From Candidatus Micrarchaeota archaeon (GTDB taxonomy: Archaea; Micrarchaeota; Micrarchaeia; Micrarchaeales; CABMGC01): a DNA stretch of 64,000 nucleotides. The DNA is taken from positions 4,636 through 68,635 of the forward strand of contig JAGWHJ010000001.1 in assembly GCA_028866835.1 (NCBI GenBank). Reading direction: 5' to 3'. How positions within the stretch are numbered: the first letter of the stretch is position 1; each line of letters starts with the position of its first letter. A program made the translations under genes and the position numbers. Of this stretch, positions 6,012-50,134 are shown one piece after another. The notes under the pieces were generated by a model that had not been told where the DNA came from, searched no databases, and saw nothing but the letters and a program-made list of their open reading frames with translations.

Positions 6012-6677
6012 TCAGAGGCCGAGCGCGTCGGTTATCCTCGATAGTTCGTAGCCCGTCGTCTGGTCGCCGACCACCGCGCCCTTCGAGTTGGCGATTATGC
6101 AGAGCCCGACGTTCGGGGAGCCCATGTTGGCCGTAGTCTGAGATACGCTTCCGACAAGCTTCATTATGGCCTCCTCCTCGTGCTCCGTTGTCCTGTTGTT
6201 CAGCACCATGCCATTGTTCGTTAGCTTGTTGTTTGCACCGACCGTCCCGAAGCCCCCTGTCGAGAGCCTCACGACCTCCACGTCGAGAGCATCGCCGATC
6301 TGCTTCATCTCACGGGCATCGTATTCGGGATTGACTATCGCGATCCTGTCGTTTGCAAGTATGTTGTTCCCCAATGCGTTGAGGTCGGTCTTGATGGTCT
6401 CTATATTGATGCCCGGCAGCTCCCTTCTGAGGAGCGCAATCTCGTCGCGCCTCGCAAGTTCGGGCACAAGCACGCCATTCGAGTTGGCAACAGCGAAGAT
6501 GCCTACGAGGTCGGAGCTGTCCACGGTGATGCGTATGGCCCTGGCGTCGAGATTCTCCCTTATGAGGCGCTCGTCGCCGGATGAGAGCATGCTCCCTATC
6601 AGTACGTATCCATCCGCCGCAGTTGCGAATGCACCCACATAGTCGTTGCCATGCACGGTGCCCTTAGCTACACCCAT
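6012..6677 (-). CDS. eif6: translation initiation factor 6 (aIF6)
   Basis: 221 aa with the five-fold pseudo-repeat pattern GNDYVGAF, LVGIFAVANSNG and VGANNKLTNNG typical of eIF6. Confidence 0.9.
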   Translation of the reverse strand: MGVAKGTVHGNDYVGAFATAADGYVLIGSMLSSGDERLIRENLDARAIRITVDSSDLVGIFAVANSNGVLVPELARRDEIALLRRELPGINIETIKTDLNALGNNILANDRIAIVNPEYDAREMKQIGDALDVEVVRLSTGGFGTVGANNKLTNNGMVLNNRTTEHEEEAIMKLVGSVSQTTANMGSPNVGLCIIANSKGAVVGDQTTGYELSRITDALGL

Positions 6678-6695: not shown

Positions 6696-7124
6696 TTAAC
6701 TCTTAGGAGCTTCGGGCGGTTTGGCGCTTGGCTGTGCGGCGGTCTTCTTCTCGTCGGCCTTCGGCTTCTGCTGCGGAGGCTGCCCCTTTGCGGCTGGCTG
6801 CTTCTGCGCTGGCGCAGCCTTTGCCTGGGCTGCAGGCTTTGCGGCATTTGCAGCAGGCTTCGCCTCGGGCTTCTTCTCCTCGAAGAGCTTCACTGTGACA
6901 ACCCCTCCTATCTTGTCCACGCTCAGCTTGAGCGGCTTGAACCTTCTCGAAACGTTCCTAAATATGTACTCGTTAACCTTTGTATCGATCTTGACGGCAT
7001 CGGACGGGACGCGCTCCTGCCTCCCAATTGTCTCCCTGAGGTAATCTGGGGCCTTTGACCTTATCCTGGTCGAATGTATCTTTACCAGGCTGCTCCTTAG
7101 TTTTACCGTGACGGTCTTTGCCAT
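6696..7124 (-). CDS. rpl31e: 50S ribosomal protein L31e with Lys/Ala/Pro-rich C-terminal tail
   Basis: The N-terminal 80 aa match the L31e pattern (RSKAPDYLRETI, KIDTKVNEYIFRN, RFKPLKLSV). A low-complexity tail of about 60 aa follows. Confidence 0.85.
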   Translation of the reverse strand: MAKTVTVKLRSSLVKIHSTRIRSKAPDYLRETIGRQERVPSDAVKIDTKVNEYIFRNVSRRFKPLKLSVDKIGGVVTVKLFEEKKPEAKPAANAAKPAAQAKAAPAQKQPAAKGQPPQQKPKADEKKTAAQPSAKPPEAPKS

Positions 7125-8434: not shown

Positions 8435-8992
8435 ATGCTGAAGAGCGGCGTCAGGATAATAGCATTCGAGGATTCGCCCATCCTGAAGGGCAGGAAGGAC
8501 GTACTTGTCGTTGGGGTCATAGGCAGGCAGGACATAATAGAGGGCGTGCTCTCGTTCAGGGCAATTGTTGATGGGAACGACGCTACATCCAAGCTCGCAA
8601 GAGCTGTCAAGAGATCCAGATTCGCGGGCCAGATAAGGCTGCTAACGCTAAACGGGATAACAGTGGCAGGCCTGAACATAATCGACATGGCGAAGCTTAA
8701 CAGATCGCTAGGAATCCCGGTGCTTGCGATAACGAGGCAGAAACCAAACCCTTCGAAGCTGATGGAGGCGGTAAGGCATCACTCAGGGAAGGATTCCGCC
8801 AAAAAGATTGCCGTAATAAAGCGCACGAAGGAGGCGATGCTCCTGCTTAAGAGGTCGGGCCATTATTTCCAGTGTGTGGGCATCGAGAAGAAGGACCTGG
8901 CGAATTTTGCCGATCTTTCCGTCTCGCTGCTTAGGCTTGGGCATATCATAGCGAGCGGCGTGACAAGCGGGGAATCGCATGGAAGGATGTAA
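8435..8992 (+). CDS. DUF99/UPF0215 family protein (EndoV-like fold)
   Basis: The N-terminal VRIIAFEDSP...VVGVI pattern and overall size resemble archaeal UPF0215 proteins. Confidence 0.55.
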   Translation: MLKSGVRIIAFEDSPILKGRKDVLVVGVIGRQDIIEGVLSFRAIVDGNDATSKLARAVKRSRFAGQIRLLTLNGITVAGLNIIDMAKLNRSLGIPVLAITRQKPNPSKLMEAVRHHSGKDSAKKIAVIKRTKEAMLLLKRSGHYFQCVGIEKKDLANFADLSVSLLRLGHIIASGVTSGESHGRM

Positions 8993-9086
8993 TAATTATC
9001 GCCTTTGGCCTTATATCTTTGCAAGGTATTAATAAACTAATTCAAAACTTTTAAAAATCAATTCGCTCATCCTTAAATTGATTTTG

Positions 9087-10334
9087 ATGGCAGTGAGCCA
9101 AAGGCGGGTCGGTGTTACTACTGATGGCATCAGGTTTTCAAGGTTGAGGTGCCCGGATGGTGAGGAAAGATACCTATTAAGGGAAGGAGACATCCCGGGC
9201 CTGAAACTTGACGGCCCAACCTCACACAGGCTACTTGGCGAGGCGGGCTTGGTACCGGTTGAACAGAATGGAGAGCTGCCTTTTCTTGCACGCTATCCGG
9301 CAATTAGGGAGACGTTGACTGAAGGCGGGGAGCACACACGTTTCTATACCGCAGGGAGTGGACAGCTTTACCTGCCCGAATTTCAAGGTTTAGATGACGA
9401 TACAGGCAGATTGAAGGAGGGCAGGAGACATCCAGAGATCACAGTAAGGAATTTTGATGGGCCGCATCCGTTGTTGCTCATAATAGGATCGGATGAGGAA
9501 TCCGATTGGGCAGGCTACAGGTTCGTACGCGCTGCGGATGTGGAGCCAAGCGCTGGCGCCAACATAGTATACGGCAAGAAAATAAATGGTACGTACGCTA
9601 TGGGGGAGTTCTGGCGTCAGCAGGGATGGGTAAATGCGGACGGCACGCTTTCTCGTGCGCGATGGGCTGATTCTGGAACAAGGGTTGCAGCAATAAGATT
9701 CCTTGTTGAGAATGTATTGGATAAGGACCCGCGTGAGGTCACAAACGAGGATTTTAGGTCGAACGGACTTTGGGGACTTTTAACACACTTTTATAATAGT
9801 AGCAACTATGCTGCTGTTTCTGCGGCGTTCCCCGAACTTAATATAAGGGGATGGGAGATGATATGCACGCCTAGGGGCATATACCCTTCTCCAGAGAACA
9901 GAGTAGCCGCAGTAAGAGAGCTGGTGAAAGCATCAGGCAAAGGCGATCCCAGAGACCTTGCAAGAAGTGATTTTGAATCACACGGGCTTAGAGGGCTTTT
10001 ACACGGTCATTACAATGGCAGCACTTATGCGGCTGTTGTGGAGGCATTCCCTGAACAGATGATTAAAGAATGGGAGATGGCCATGACCCCCATGCGTTTC
10101 TACGAGTCACCGGAAAACAGGGTAGCTGCAGTGAGATGGCTAGCAGAGAAATTAGGTAAGGACCCAAGGGAGATAACACAAAAGGATTTCAAGTCAAACA
10201 GACTTTTGGGGCTTTTGGATTGGCATTATAACGGCAGCCCTTACGAGGCATTGCTGGAAGCAGGATTAGTTACAAAAGAAGATGAATACTTTATGAGGAA
10301 TAGAGGTCCGGTCATGAAATTAAGAAGGTCATAA
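9087..10334 (+). CDS. hypothetical protein with unknown N-terminal domain and three tandem 73-aa helical repeats
   Basis: Long ORF in an AT-richer islet. The repeat consensus is ENRVAAVR.L....GKDPR....DF.S.GL.GLL..HYNGS.YAAV.EAFPE....WEM. The ATG at 9087 is in frame with the track start TTG at 9078. Confidence 0.6.
   Translation: MAVSQRRVGVTTDGIRFSRLRCPDGEERYLLREGDIPGLKLDGPTSHRLLGEAGLVPVEQNGELPFLARYPAIRETLTEGGEHTRFYTAGSGQLYLPEFQGLDDDTGRLKEGRRHPEITVRNFDGPHPLLLIIGSDEESDWAGYRFVRAADVEPSAGANIVYGKKINGTYAMGEFWRQQGWVNADGTLSRARWADSGTRVAAIRFLVENVLDKDPREVTNEDFRSNGLWGLLTHFYNSSNYAAVSAAFPELNIRGWEMICTPRGIYPSPENRVAAVRELVKASGKGDPRDLARSDFESHGLRGLLHGHYNGSTYAAVVEAFPEQMIKEWEMAMTPMRFYESPENRVAAVRWLAEKLGKDPREITQKDFKSNRLLGLLDWHYNGSPYEALLEAGLVTKEDEYFMRNRGPVMKLRRS
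9678..10280 (+). repeat. three tandem coding repeats (about 219 nt / 73 aa each) inside CDS 9087..10334
   Basis: Repeat units start at 9678, 9897 and 10116 (the 9897 boundary was checked against the codons cca gag aac aga gta). Confidence 0.8.
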
Positions 10335-10378
10335 GCGCATTAACATTTAATGACATGTAAATTGTTTGAGGTATTTTT

Positions 10379-10657
10379 ATGGCAAAAATAAAAGGGAGGA
10401 ATGCAAGTTTTTTCAGAGCTATTGAGGACGAGGCCATGGCGCTTCAATATCATGACGGCCGTGGAATCATATTTCAGAACCTGGATGCTGCTAGGGCATA
10501 TGAGAGATCTAGTCTGCCAGAGCATCTTCGAAGAGCAAACGAAGCATGGATGAACATAAAGGCCGTTGTAAAAGATCCAAAATTAAGGGCAAGGATAGAT
10601 GGCAGGATCAAGCTTAATGAACAAAAAAGTGATGCTTCAGGGCTAAAAAGGGCCTGA
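10379..10657 (+). CDS. hypothetical small protein (92 aa)
   Basis: ORF only. It has the same strand and the same AT-richer composition as the upstream repeat protein. No recognisable motif. Confidence 0.4.
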   Translation: MAKIKGRNASFFRAIEDEAMALQYHDGRGIIFQNLDAARAYERSSLPEHLRRANEAWMNIKAVVKDPKLRARIDGRIKLNEQKSDASGLKRA

Positions 10658-10702: not shown

Positions 10703-10867
10703 ATGGCAGGATTATCAACACCGCAGCAGCAGGCCGGGGTTCTGAGCTTCTACGATGCGCCTGAGCGAGGCCCTAGGATGAACGCTAGGGCAGTCATAAT
10801 CGTAATACTCATCTTCACGATACTTGTGCTAATCTTCGACCACGTGCTCAGCACTACGCTAGTGTGA
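10703..10867 (+). CDS. preprotein translocase subunit Sec61beta
   Basis: Hand-translated 54-aa ORF absent from the track: MAGLSTPQQQAGVLSFYDAPERGPRMNARAVIIVILIFTILVLIFDHVLSTTLV. The AG(L/V)..FYD..e.gp+...+.V motif followed by a C-terminal TM tail-anchor is typical of archaeal Sec61beta. Confidence 0.75.
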   Translation: MAGLSTPQQQAGVLSFYDAPERGPRMNARAVIIVILIFTILVLIFDHVLSTTLV

Positions 10868-11765
10868 ACAGGTCCTTCTTCTTTTCAGAGACGTCGCCGT
10901 TCTCGGAGAGCAGGCAAAGTATCGCCCGCGCACCGTCCTCGCTTATGCCCACGTCCCTTGCAATGCTGCTGACCCTTGATTCCCCCTTGTCCTTGAGGTC
11001 CTTTATTATCGCAGTGGCGTGCCTGTCGAAGTATTGCCTGAGTACGACATAGAACTTCTTGTTGAACGCTCTTGTGCCTAGGACAAGGCCGCGTCTTATG
11101 CTCTCCTCAAGCGCCAGAGAGAGCGATGACGCCTCGCCCTCTGTGGAGACGATGACGAAACCATCCTTCTCGAGTTTTTTGACGTTCTCGTTCTCAGGCA
11201 TCTTGTTTCTTACGTACATAAAAGGGGCTTCCTTGATTTGGGGAGAGACCTCCTCGATCTTTGCAGGCTCTGGACCAGCCTTCTTCTTCCTCATGAGGAA
11301 CTTGTCATAGACCTCCTTCGAGATGCTGTAGAGCTCCTTGCTTCGCATGTCCTTCCTGAAAGGCAGGACGGCCTTCTTGACTATCAGGCGGCTGAGCACC
11401 TCCTTCTCCCTGTCGCTCAGCATCCTGTTTACGCTATCGACATCGCGTGAGCCGTACCTGAGAGTATCGAGCTTCCTGAGAACGTCAAGCTCCTCCTGAG
11501 TAAGCCCTGCCTCTGACGCGCGTCTCTGCTGGGCAGGCGCGGATGGCTGCTGGCGTGGCGCGCCCTCTGGGCCTTCCTTTCCAAGCAGCAGGCTTGCGAC
11601 GTCGGATTTCTTGGCAAAGATGAACGTATTGTCCCCTGCCTTGAAGAAATCGACCTCGTCGTTCTCGCCGATCCTCAATCCCCTGACAACCTCGAAAGGC
11701 AGGTATACGATAAGCTTGTCCTTGCTTTTGTAGACCTTTACGATTTTAACACCGCCTCTAATCAT
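10854..11765 (-). CDS. hypothetical protein with N-terminal AbrB/SpoVT-like domain and probable wHTH domains
   Basis: N-terminus KLIVYLPFEVVRGLRIGENDEVDFF resembles the swapped-hairpin AbrB motif. The C-terminus SRVSSIARDVGISEDGARAILCLLSENG looks like a wHTH. Confidence 0.45.
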   Translation of the reverse strand: MIRGGVKIVKVYKSKDKLIVYLPFEVVRGLRIGENDEVDFFKAGDNTFIFAKKSDVASLLLGKEGPEGAPRQQPSAPAQQRRASEAGLTQEELDVLRKLDTLRYGSRDVDSVNRMLSDREKEVLSRLIVKKAVLPFRKDMRSKELYSISKEVYDKFLMRKKKAGPEPAKIEEVSPQIKEAPFMYVRNKMPENENVKKLEKDGFVIVSTEGEASSLSLALEESIRRGLVLGTRAFNKKFYVVLRQYFDRHATAIIKDLKDKGESRVSSIARDVGISEDGARAILCLLSENGDVSEKKKDLFTLA

Positions 11766-22405: not shown

Positions 22406-22870
22406 TTGATCGGTTATATGGAATTTAGACAGCATGCAAGAAGGAGGATTGTCAATGCGAGCATGGTCGTGGCTGGAGAAGCTGCATTGCAGTACCTCAA
22501 GATACGTGAAGACGACATTAACCAAAAAGGCGTGGCACTTAAAAGGGGGGTGTTAGTTGCCGTAGCTGCGATTGATTTATTGAAACAGATAGGTTACAAT
22601 CGACTTAGGGAGGGTTTGGATAATCCAAAGCAGCAGACTTATCTTGACTTGGGGAAAGATGCGGTCGAGATCGGAGATGGAATAGCGGTTACAATGAGAG
22701 GCATTACGAAGGGATCGAAACTGCAAACGGGAATTGGGGTTCAGAGGGTTGTAGCTGGCAATTTAAATGCATATATGAATCTAAGGCGGCTTGGGGGCAT
22801 AAGGCTTGGTGAGGAATTAGAAGAGATGCTAAGAGATAGAGTTCACAAACATGGTGGAATACGGCTCTGA
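22406..22870 (+). CDS. hypothetical protein (154 aa)
   Basis: ORF only, in AT-richer sequence next to tRNA-Leu. Confidence 0.4.
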   Translation: MIGYMEFRQHARRRIVNASMVVAGEAALQYLKIREDDINQKGVALKRGVLVAVAAIDLLKQIGYNRLREGLDNPKQQTYLDLGKDAVEIGDGIAVTMRGITKGSKLQTGIGVQRVVAGNLNAYMNLRRLGGIRLGEELEEMLRDRVHKHGGIRL

Positions 22871-22903: not shown

Positions 22904-22993
22904 TGGTGCAGGGGGAGAGATTTGAACTCTCGCATCCACTAAAGGAAGCGGGCCCTGAACCCGTCGCGTTTGACCAAGCTCCGCCACCCCTGC
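22904..22993 (-). tRNA. tRNA-Leu (anticodon CAG), long variable arm, CCA encoded
   Basis: Reverse complement folds as GCAGGGG-TG-GCG/GAGCTTGGTCAAA/CGC-G-ACGGG/TTCAGGG/CCCGC, then a variable arm, then GAGAG/TTCAAAT/CTCTC-CCCCTGC-A-CCA. Confidence 0.85.
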
Positions 22994-49351: not shown

Positions 49352-50134
49352 TTGACCAAAATGAGATTGCTTAGGGTACGTGATGCCGCGAAAACGCAGC
49401 CGACAATGCAAAGCATTCTAGACGAAAAGGATATCTTAAGACAAGGGGAGTTGATATCCCAAGTGAGAGACCCGAAATTGCAACTTAGGCTTGCACAGTC
49501 AGAAGATTGGGATATCAGAAATGAATTGGCTCGTAATAGGAACTTGGCTAATAATGTACAGCATGTACTTGCTTCAGATAGCCACCCGTATGTTAGGAGC
49601 AACCTTGCAAAACATACCAGAATACCTAAGATACAACTTGTACTTGCAACTGACCGTTCATCACGCATAAGACAAAGTCTTGCAGGAAATGAGAATATTA
49701 CTAAAGAGGTTCAGCTGATCCTGGCTGTGGATCCATCGGTGCACGTGAGATCCGTTCTCGCTTTGCAAGGAAACAAACTGGACCCCGAGGTCATCGAAAT
49801 ACTTCTGCAAGATAAAAAGTCTGAAGTACGGCACTCTCTTGCACTTACAAAGAATACAACAGACATAGAACTATTAAAGAGGCTGGCAGTCGACAGAAGC
49901 AGAAAGGTAAAGATAGAAGTTGTGGAACGTTTGTTTTACGGTCGCCCTGATAAGAGCTTGGTTGAAGAACTGCATCCAATACTAGAAATGGATCGAGATC
50001 CAGAAGTAATAAGGGCATTGGAGCGCATGGACTTTGAGAGACAATTGATGGCAGATACACCTAAGATGATGGATCTGATTAGACGGGGCGCAACAGGAAA
50101 GGAAGTAGTAAGAGCACTTAGACGCAAGGAGTAA
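49352..50134 (+). CDS. HEAT/LRV-type alpha-solenoid repeat protein, hypothetical
   Basis: About 8 degenerate units of about 24 aa with the pattern L(A/L).D.d..VR..LA.n.n...e....L, in AT-richer sequence. Confidence 0.55.
   Translation: MTKMRLLRVRDAAKTQPTMQSILDEKDILRQGELISQVRDPKLQLRLAQSEDWDIRNELARNRNLANNVQHVLASDSHPYVRSNLAKHTRIPKIQLVLATDRSSRIRQSLAGNENITKEVQLILAVDPSVHVRSVLALQGNKLDPEVIEILLQDKKSEVRHSLALTKNTTDIELLKRLAVDRSRKVKIEVVERLFYGRPDKSLVEELHPILEMDRDPEVIRALERMDFERQLMADTPKMMDLIRRGATGKEVVRALRRKE

Follow-up and report, generated by a model that had tools for sequence, protein, structure and literature searches.

Open reading frame (ORF) A lies on the plus strand of a 64,000-nt stretch of DNA (contig JAGWHJ010000001.1, the whole 64-kb stretch being referred to here as the window) from a metagenome-assembled genome (MAG) of Candidatus Micrarchaeota. 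Its product, which is identical to the NCBI entry 'hypothetical protein KGH72_00100' from a Candidatus Micrarchaeota MAG, is probably a chimeric, modular binding protein, in which a C-type-lectin-like head, orphaned from a diversity-generating retroelement (DGR), is joined to a body of three helical repeats. The initial annotation of this DNA had placed three 73-aa repeats at 9678, 9897 and 10116 and a small ORF 44 nt downstream of the gene that carries them, and re-reading of the coordinates gave the same anatomy. The parts of ORF A are listed here.

9087 (ATG)-10334, plus strand: ORF A, 415 aa plus stop (an alternative start, TTG, is present at 9078)
9087..9584, plus strand: N-terminal domain (the head), aa 1-166; predicted C-type-lectin-like fold, sequence-novel
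9468..9575, plus strand: segment equivalent to the variable region (VR) of DGR targets, aa 128-163, PLLLIIGSDEESDWAGYRFVRAADVEPSAGANIVYG; placed by codon-level alignment to the VR and template repeat (TR) of locus L011
9585..9677, plus strand: junction and pre-repeat motif, aa 167-197, ..YAMGEFWRQQGWVNADGTLSRARWADSG
9678..9896, plus strand: repeat 1, aa 198-270; four predicted helices
9897..10115, plus strand: repeat 2, aa 271-343; four predicted helices
10116..10331, plus strand: repeat 3, aa 344-415; ends in the family C-terminal tail EAGLVTKEDEYFMRNRG (from nt 10257)

A predicted C-type-lectin-like head

The N-terminal domain had been described in the initial annotation as unrecognised, but its homologues and its predicted structure make it recognisable as C-type-lectin-like, and the family to which it belongs appears to be diversified by DGRs. 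A HMMER search of the full library with residues 1-187 recovered nine standalone homologues of 169-237 aa (E 6e-28 to 4e-4); neither the head nor any of the nine gave a match in Pfam. In the head-family alignment (A4), L50, G54, L55, G125, S135, R145 and G163 are invariant and D136 is nearly so. AlphaFold2 (AF2), run on a 10-sequence alignment of the head, returned a model with a predicted local distance difference test score (pLDDT) of 89.3 and a predicted template-modelling score (pTM) of 0.82, for which the Foldseek matches in the PDB are almost all C-type lectin domains (CTLDs), namely those of snake-venom lectins, TC14, the mannose receptor and MBP-A. The best of these matches has an E value of 5e-3 and a probability of 0.93, while Mtd (1yu4), the prototype DGR variable protein, ranks 28th. 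There is thus moderate support for the head as a C-type-lectin-like domain of an unannotated archaeal family. On one short contig (L013:1-1464) the lectin-like genes occur as two or three tandem paralogues, and its direct repeats, 300 nt and 129 nt long, are 82-83% identical and spaced by ~644 nt.

Retroelements in homologues of the head

The gene of P0045, the closest homologue of the head, is followed immediately by an RVT_1 gene on two contigs (L011 and L012), and a 104-nt direct repeat joins codons 130-160 of P0045 to DNA just before the reverse transcriptase (RT) gene. In L011 the VR (6388-6480) and the TR (6902-6994) share a 93-nt core, in which 14 of the 15 mismatches fall at TR adenines; the RT-proximal copy, which is the TR, has A opposite another base in the gene copy and is rich in AAC codons. 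The same arrangement is seen for the divergent homologue P0051 (L015), where a VR at 696-801 and a TR at 1274-1379 again differ at 15 positions, 14 of them TR adenines, with an RT downstream. The RTs of L011 and L015 are ~64% identical to each other and carry the motif IGNLTSQ or LGNLTSQ, which is typical of DGR RTs. With these textbook signatures, P0045 and P0051 are genuine DGR targets; a third homologue, P0048, has neither RT nor TR on its 4-kb contig.

Complete cassettes of target, TR and RT span L011:6001-8107 (also present in L012) and L015:360-2502 (also in L016). Their variable protein is an unannotated, lectin-like protein of ~225 aa with the VR at 65-72% of its length, followed by a helical or coiled-coil tail. 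In L011 the gene caller had extended the RT ORF through the TR.

Known DGRs provide a setting for these observations. VR regions are reported to be systematically C-type-lectin folds and to sit at protein C-termini, which has been attributed to intergenic cis elements, DGRs can act on remote targets, and domain shuffling has been proposed for the targets (Roux et al. 2021, PMC8144416). DGRs are also known in DPANN archaea (PMC8144416, PMC5758913). In P0045 and P0051, the RT copies the adjacent TR and rewrites ~31-35 codons of this domain at adenine-templated positions. Such rewriting would vary the ligand-binding face of the domain and leave fixed the scaffold residues, which are kept in ORF A.

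The head of ORF A as a probable orphan

Every scaffold residue is conserved in the VR-equivalent segment of ORF A, while searches of the window found no RT (tblastn and an RT hidden Markov model, HMM) and no TR (blastn). When both strands of the 64 kb were scanned for TR-compatible sequence under the rule 'same base or A', the highest non-self score was 74/108, a background value. Metagenomes were also scanned for a TR with the scaffold codons fixed and the variable codons set to N, and none was found; a metagenome scan with alignment A6 was likewise negative. A search for a GC-rich hairpin just downstream of the VR-equivalent segment found none and was uninformative.

Eight of the 12 variable-position codons of ORF A end in A or G, whereas the AAY-templated codons of two homologues end, with a single exception, in C or T. 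As codons that end in A or G misfit an AAY-type template, they suggest that the variable codons of ORF A have undergone ordinary drift since any last retro-homing. Compared with DGR targets, ORF A has the predicted C-type-lectin fold, but within the window it has neither a TR nor an RT, and its VR-equivalent is not C-terminal. Its head is probably a fixed orphan, i.e. a former DGR domain, the alternative being a target that is served by a distant element.

The repeat body

Repeats 1 and 2 are 53% identical as protein and 57% as DNA, repeat 3 is in register only with a one-codon gap, and against the repeat HMM of the family ORF A reaches 312.7 bits over three domains. Because Tandem Repeats Finder reported no repeat at the DNA level, the repetition is old and visible in the protein only. 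AF2, run on a 43-sequence alignment, predicts residues 170-405 as entirely helical with pLDDT >94, with four helices per repeat and a final helix in the tail; in the same run the N-terminus of ORF A was poor, the alignment being without depth there. Neither ORF A nor the profiles of the repeat and the head matched PDB sequences above chance level, and no usable match for ORF A was obtained in Pfam (E <= 1), NCBIfam, PHROGs or PADLOC.

A total of 42 homologues align to the repeat half of ORF A only. The repeat HMM counts 176 units in 43 proteins, with 2-7 per protein, and their consensus reads ..KENRvAAVkWLVeKLgKDPRDlT.eDF.sNRL.GLL..yYngSPY.Av.EAfPeL.IkPWEM..TP.GF. The N-terminal regions vary among family members, and the pre-repeat motif tMdDFWxxqGW and the tail EAGLVTxaDExYMR recur. 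In the GTDB representative genomes there are 32 family loci, with 1-10 repeats per protein, almost all of them in Micrarchaeota MAGs, including Burarchaeum, and a few in MAGs of Thermoplasmatota, Methanomassiliicoccales and Methanobacteriota. A single genome holds at least seven loci, and head-to-tail arrays of two or three repeat-family genes are found in Micrarchaeota at L019:4137-7497, L024:3736-5672 and L038:2-5077.

The loci outside Micrarchaeota include L043:3858-6077, L044:4506-6500, L045:4183-5604 and L047:2150-3709, on contigs binned as Thermoplasmatota, Methanomassiliicoccales or Methanobacteriota (binning taken as given). It is the Thermoplasmatota contigs that have the longest arrays, with 10 and 8 units, and some Thermoplasmatota are known to host Micrarchaeota. 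When the flanking ORFs of the 32 loci were clustered all-against-all, no neighbour was common between genomes; the only recurrent 'cluster' consists of antisense ORFs inside the repeat genes, as judged from one printed member.

Some weaker matches were seen in the family. Nine of the 43 proteins (P0010, P0017, P0003 and others) have sub-threshold matches to Frankia_peptide (PF14407), at most 40.8 bits against a 48-bit cut-off, which span ~20 residues, e.g. SPYDALKEAGYDFHPWEM. These and the other sub-threshold Pfam matches of the family (PI-TkoII_IV, Ank_4 and others) were treated as short-motif or helical noise. Pairs of Nucleotidyltransferase and HEPN genes lie a few kb from repeat-family genes at two unrelated loci (L001:2395-3377 and L002:7601-8573), and are probably merely abundant toxin-antitoxin modules.

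Fusion of head and body

The head is absent from all 41 other repeat-bearing ORFs in the 32 reference loci, and also from the 42 homologues that were found first. From residue 167 onwards ORF A can be aligned with P0028, a paralogue from the same genome that is 60% identical to it over the repeat region, and Met172 of ORF A coincides with the conserved Met of tMdDFWxxqGW. The reading frame is continuous from head to repeats through a linker of ~6 codons. This junction is most simply read as a real fusion, in keeping with the domain shuffling that has been proposed for targets of DGRs.

The most likely working model would then be a head that gives specificity, mounted on a constant helical stalk or adaptor, because the family joins a constant repeat body and tail to many unrelated N-terminal regions. 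ORF A itself would be a young, lineage-specific accessory gene that arose by domain shuffling, since it has a low GC content at third codon positions (GC3), a unique fusion and no conserved context.

Kinship of the repeat

A tblastn search of plasmids (7.3-Gb database) gave 179 records at E 1e-3, of which 174 are from Bacillus, and nearly all of the matches listed fall in genes for a 'DUF4046 domain-containing protein', with 24-26% identity over ~190 residues. The Bacillus protein WP_071715013 (plasmid NZ_CP063160) has four tandem units of ~75 aa with the same motif order as the archaeal repeat, and the archaeal repeat HMM detects four in-register domains in it (84.9 bits). A comparison of the archaeal and Bacillus repeats by hhalign gave a probability of 97.5% (E 5.5e-12), and on these profile matches the archaeal repeat is clearly homologous to the repeats of the Bacillus DUF4046 proteins. 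The Pfam model of DUF4046 (PF13255) captures little of this: ORF A falls below its gathering score and matches no family at E <= 1, precomputed matches exist for 11 of 43 relatives, of which the single one given with a grade is 'faint', and in the Bacillus member the model covers residues 9-90 only (26.2 bits against a cut-off of 22.8). We found no mention of DUF4046 or PF13255 in the literature searched.

The initial annotation had instead likened the repeat to the homing-endonuclease-associated HNH_repeat (PF18780), from which nucleic-acid binding would follow. As a reference, PF18780 proteins from haloarchaeal plasmids (265-401 bits) were used, of which 15 repeat units were aligned; one of these proteins has a near-threshold HNH domain (20.9 bits against a cut-off of 21.4). 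When 60 archaeal repeats were compared with the 15 units by hhalign, the alignment over 48 columns (P 0.0012) paired the very elements that had been named, helix-LGxxP...(G/N)S(W/P)xxA(L/V)xxA, and to this extent the likeness stands. Its probability, however, is 19.6%, an HMM of the HNH units found no signal across the archaeal repeat family, and PF18780 itself had no match in ORF A and stayed below threshold in the two of 43 family proteins where it was seen (best E 0.003). Between the Bacillus repeats and PF18780 there is no sign of kinship (hhalign 0.1%). The absence of an evident nuclease motif, also stated in the initial annotation, agrees with the Pfam results, as Pfam gave no nuclease domain in ORF A, and the 25 most frequent Pfam matches of the 43 family proteins include none either. 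The resemblance to HNH_repeat is therefore a weak lead, not membership. Seventeen Bacillus plasmid records also match an HNH_repeat consensus; they may be true PF18780 proteins or relatives of the DUF4046 proteins.

The locus and its neighbours

ORF A and the small ORF downstream of it, ORF B, lie between two genes as follows.

8435-8992: left flank, Endo_dU/DUF99 gene (Pfam E 1.6e-35)
9050..9057, plus strand: TATA-box-like TTTAAAAA in an AT-rich spacer, 30 nt upstream of the ORF A ATG; direct sequence reading
10379-10657, plus strand: ORF B, 92 aa; starts 44 nt past ORF A on the same strand
10703-10867: right flank, Sec61beta-like short ORF (weak Pfam match, E 0.005, under the cut-off)

The spacer before ORF A (8993-9086) has a GC content of 0.27, and the TATA-box-like element in it suggests a putative promoter of its own, with a very short leader, for ORF A. 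To the right, a minus-strand gene at 10854-11765 encodes a 303-aa protein with weak AbrB/MazE-like matches at its N-terminus and weak winged-helix ones at its C-terminus (HTH_9, DUF5817_CT, TrmB), and may be a lineage-specific transcription factor.

The low GC reported for this region was borne out, and the contrast is sharper at third codon positions. The window has a GC content of 0.530, ORF A 0.496 and ORF B 0.437; inside ORF A the 197 N-terminal residues before the repeats are encoded at 0.538 and the repeats at 0.458. For GC3, 51 long ORFs of the window have a mean of 0.671 (sd 0.090), against 0.484 in ORF A (z -2.1), 0.453 in its repeat part (z -2.4) and 0.380 in ORF B (z -3.2). Low GC3 is the sole 'foreign' signal at the locus. 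Two further ORFs of the window, 22406-22870 (+) and 49352-50134 (+), have equally low GC3 (0.435 and 0.404), and the first directly adjoins tRNA-Leu (22904-22993), so it may be a further foreign islet.

The two genes had also been described as an insert between DUF99 and sec61beta, a reading that the relatives do not bear out. In those with a ~50% identical DUF99, the upstream order is syntenic (SRP54, prefoldin, L39e, dsDNA-binding protein, S19e, RpoL, DUF99), but the gene after DUF99 varies in the nearest of them, being glutamine synthetase, arginase or an unannotated ORF. Because this gene differs in each relative, there is no conserved DUF99-Sec61beta junction to interrupt, and by gene order synteny breaks generally at this site, with no conserved junction having been invaded. 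A contig scan with the DUF99 protein found no relative among GTDB representative genomes; the source genome and its close kin therefore lie outside the GTDB representative set.

Among 5.8 billion proteins ORF B matched only itself; NCBIfam gave nothing usable for it, and in Pfam it has a sub-threshold match to DUF6894 (E 0.005). ORF B may be a real gene, given its length, the richness of its coding strand in purines and a Shine-Dalgarno-like motif, GAGGT, 5 nt before the ATG, and it is probably an unrelated orphan neighbour of ORF A. It was also considered as Avd, the DGR accessory protein, and rejected, having no Pfam family at cut-off and only the weak DUF6894 match.

Apart from the deviating composition, the locus shows no mark of a mobile element. 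There is no integrase or transposase between 8435 and 11765, the check for flanking direct repeats that had been proposed found none around ORF A and ORF B, and the tRNA genes closest to the locus, at 22904 and 36229, are ~12 kb or more away, with Rfam reporting one tRNA in the window. PADLOC gave a chance-level match for ORF A (E 0.048, 10 bits) and none for ORF B, PHROGs matched neither, and tblastn against phages and a scan of IMG/VR viral contigs, made with the family protein P0004, gave no match. A perfect 14-nt inverted repeat (AGAAGAAGGACCTG) at 8886-8899 and 10869-10882 brackets the two ORFs. Both arms are coding, each for K-K-D-L, one in DUF99 and the other where the minus-strand gene encodes the C-terminus of its 303-aa protein, and the repeat looks like a coincidence rather than terminal inverted repeats.

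Weighing the explanations

Several points count against the view of ORF A as a chimeric binder with an orphaned head. The Foldseek statistics of the head are weak, with a best E value of 5e-3 and target-normalised TM-scores of 0.35-0.5 obtained from a predicted model, and the head has no sequence similarity to a solved lectin or DGR protein or to the Pfam lectin and FGE families. ORF A is without a signal peptide or membrane segment, and the full-length model has no significant Foldseek match in the PDB or BFVD, which makes the stalk or adaptor role a conjecture. Only one MAG has the fusion, which may reflect an assembly chimera or a recent stop-codon loss. Finally, the search for retroelement parts covered 64 kb, and an RT and TR elsewhere in the MAG would make ORF A an active target.

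This last case, in which the RT and TR act in trans from elsewhere in the genome and residues 128-163 are still hypermutated, is in our view unlikely, though it is the strongest of the competing explanations. Two homologues look active and have VRs at the matching position of the domain, every scaffold residue is kept in ORF A, remote targets of DGRs are documented (PMC8144416) and only 64 kb of the genome were inspected; yet there is no TR or RT within those 64 kb, and eight of the 12 variable codons end in A or G where AAY templates leave C or T. The VR-equivalent segment, moreover, lies at 39% of the length of ORF A, far from any intergenic space for cis elements, the need for which has been argued to explain why VRs are C-terminal (PMC8144416), and no GC-rich hairpin is found just downstream of it. 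It is considerably less probable that the fusion is not one protein, but two genes merged by an assembly or sequencing error, or joined by a recent loss of a stop codon with the repeats still translated from Met172. The uniqueness of the fusion among ~80 family members would fit such a merger, as would the standalone homologue P0046, which ends 11 residues past the VVYGK motif, the position of Met172 at the conserved Met of the pre-repeat motif, and the GC3 of the two halves (0.53 vs 0.45). Against it, the frame runs on through the ~6 linker codons, the conserved Met is internal in other members, where it comes after 20-100 residues, inspection of the sequence reveals no sensible stop-start gene pair in an alternative frame, and NCBI annotates a single CDS.

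Equally little credence is given to the module proposed in the initial annotation, i.e. a mobile or defence pair of ORF A and ORF B whose repeats would be divergent, HNH_repeat-like units that bind nucleic acid. The motif order of PF18780 does align (P 0.0012), sub-threshold matches to PF18780 in two and to PI-TkoII intein domain IV in four of 43 family proteins point the same way, and low GC3 is consistent with a foreign origin. The hhalign probability of 19.6%, the negative HNH HMM and the Bacillus homologues, which are unrelated to PF18780, all argue against the nucleic-acid-binding part of this proposal, together with the lack of a nuclease domain in ORF A and in the 25 most frequent Pfam matches of the family. 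The pairing fares no better: homologues of ORF B are lacking, the 32 loci show no conserved gene pair, the PADLOC, PHROGs, phage and IMG/VR searches were negative, and there is no integrase, no flanking direct repeat and no nearby tRNA gene. A bolder version of the binder hypothesis, for which we see only a slender chance, would cast the repeat body and tail as an unchanging handle shared by a set of modular binders, specific to Micrarchaeota, whose heads can be exchanged. On this hypothesis ORF A would show that a lectin domain open to diversification by a retroelement can serve as such a head, and it would be a programmable receptor with which these episymbionts could, for example, recognise Thermoplasmatota hosts. 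We thus return to ORF A as a probable chimera of a lectin-like head, once served by a DGR, and three helical repeats.

Significance

Three things here are absent from the family libraries searched: a sequence-novel, C-type-lectin-like family that is diversified by DGRs in uncultured archaea; a 73-aa helical repeat, expanded in Micrarchaeota, that shares ancestry with the Bacillus DUF4046 plasmid proteins; and the unique fusion of the lectin-like head with this repeat. The N-terminal position of the variable domain is relevant to the argument that VRs need a C-terminal place for the sake of intergenic cis elements. The genomes of Micrarchaeota are tiny and their cells rely on hosts, and multi-copy, fast-changing binders are therefore natural candidates for host interaction. 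If the repeat body and tail were indeed a constant handle for exchangeable heads, then the family genes in Thermoplasmatota and Methanomassiliicoccales would represent exchange between symbiont and host.

Comparison with known systems

Like HNH_repeat (PF18780), the body of ORF A is a short helical tandem repeat that runs from a helix through LGxxP to an aromatic-(G/N)S-(W/P)-xxAL-xxAG end. The unit of PF18780 is 54 aa, as opposed to 73 aa in the archaeal family, for which no nuclease partner was detected.

The likeness to the DUF4046 proteins of the Bacillus cereus group is closer: both have units of ~73-75 aa with WE(M/F)xxTPxxF(Y/W), an A(L/V)xxW(L/T)(V/I)E helix and SP(Y/F)xx(V/I)xx(F/Y)P, and in both a signal peptide is lacking. 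The archaeal proteins differ from the Bacillus protein in having a KDPRDxT loop, a conserved motif ahead of the repeats and a conserved tail at the C-terminus, and the Bacillus proteins are plasmid-encoded.

As with Mtd of Bordetella phage BPP-1, TvpA and the archaeal AvpA, the head of ORF A is predicted to adopt a C-type-lectin-like fold, and two of its homologues have, as in those systems, a VR, a TR with mismatches at adenines and a DGR-type RT. Where DGR variable proteins usually have the VR at the C-terminus, the equivalent segment lies at 39% of the length of ORF A, and the VR at 65-72% in the homologues.

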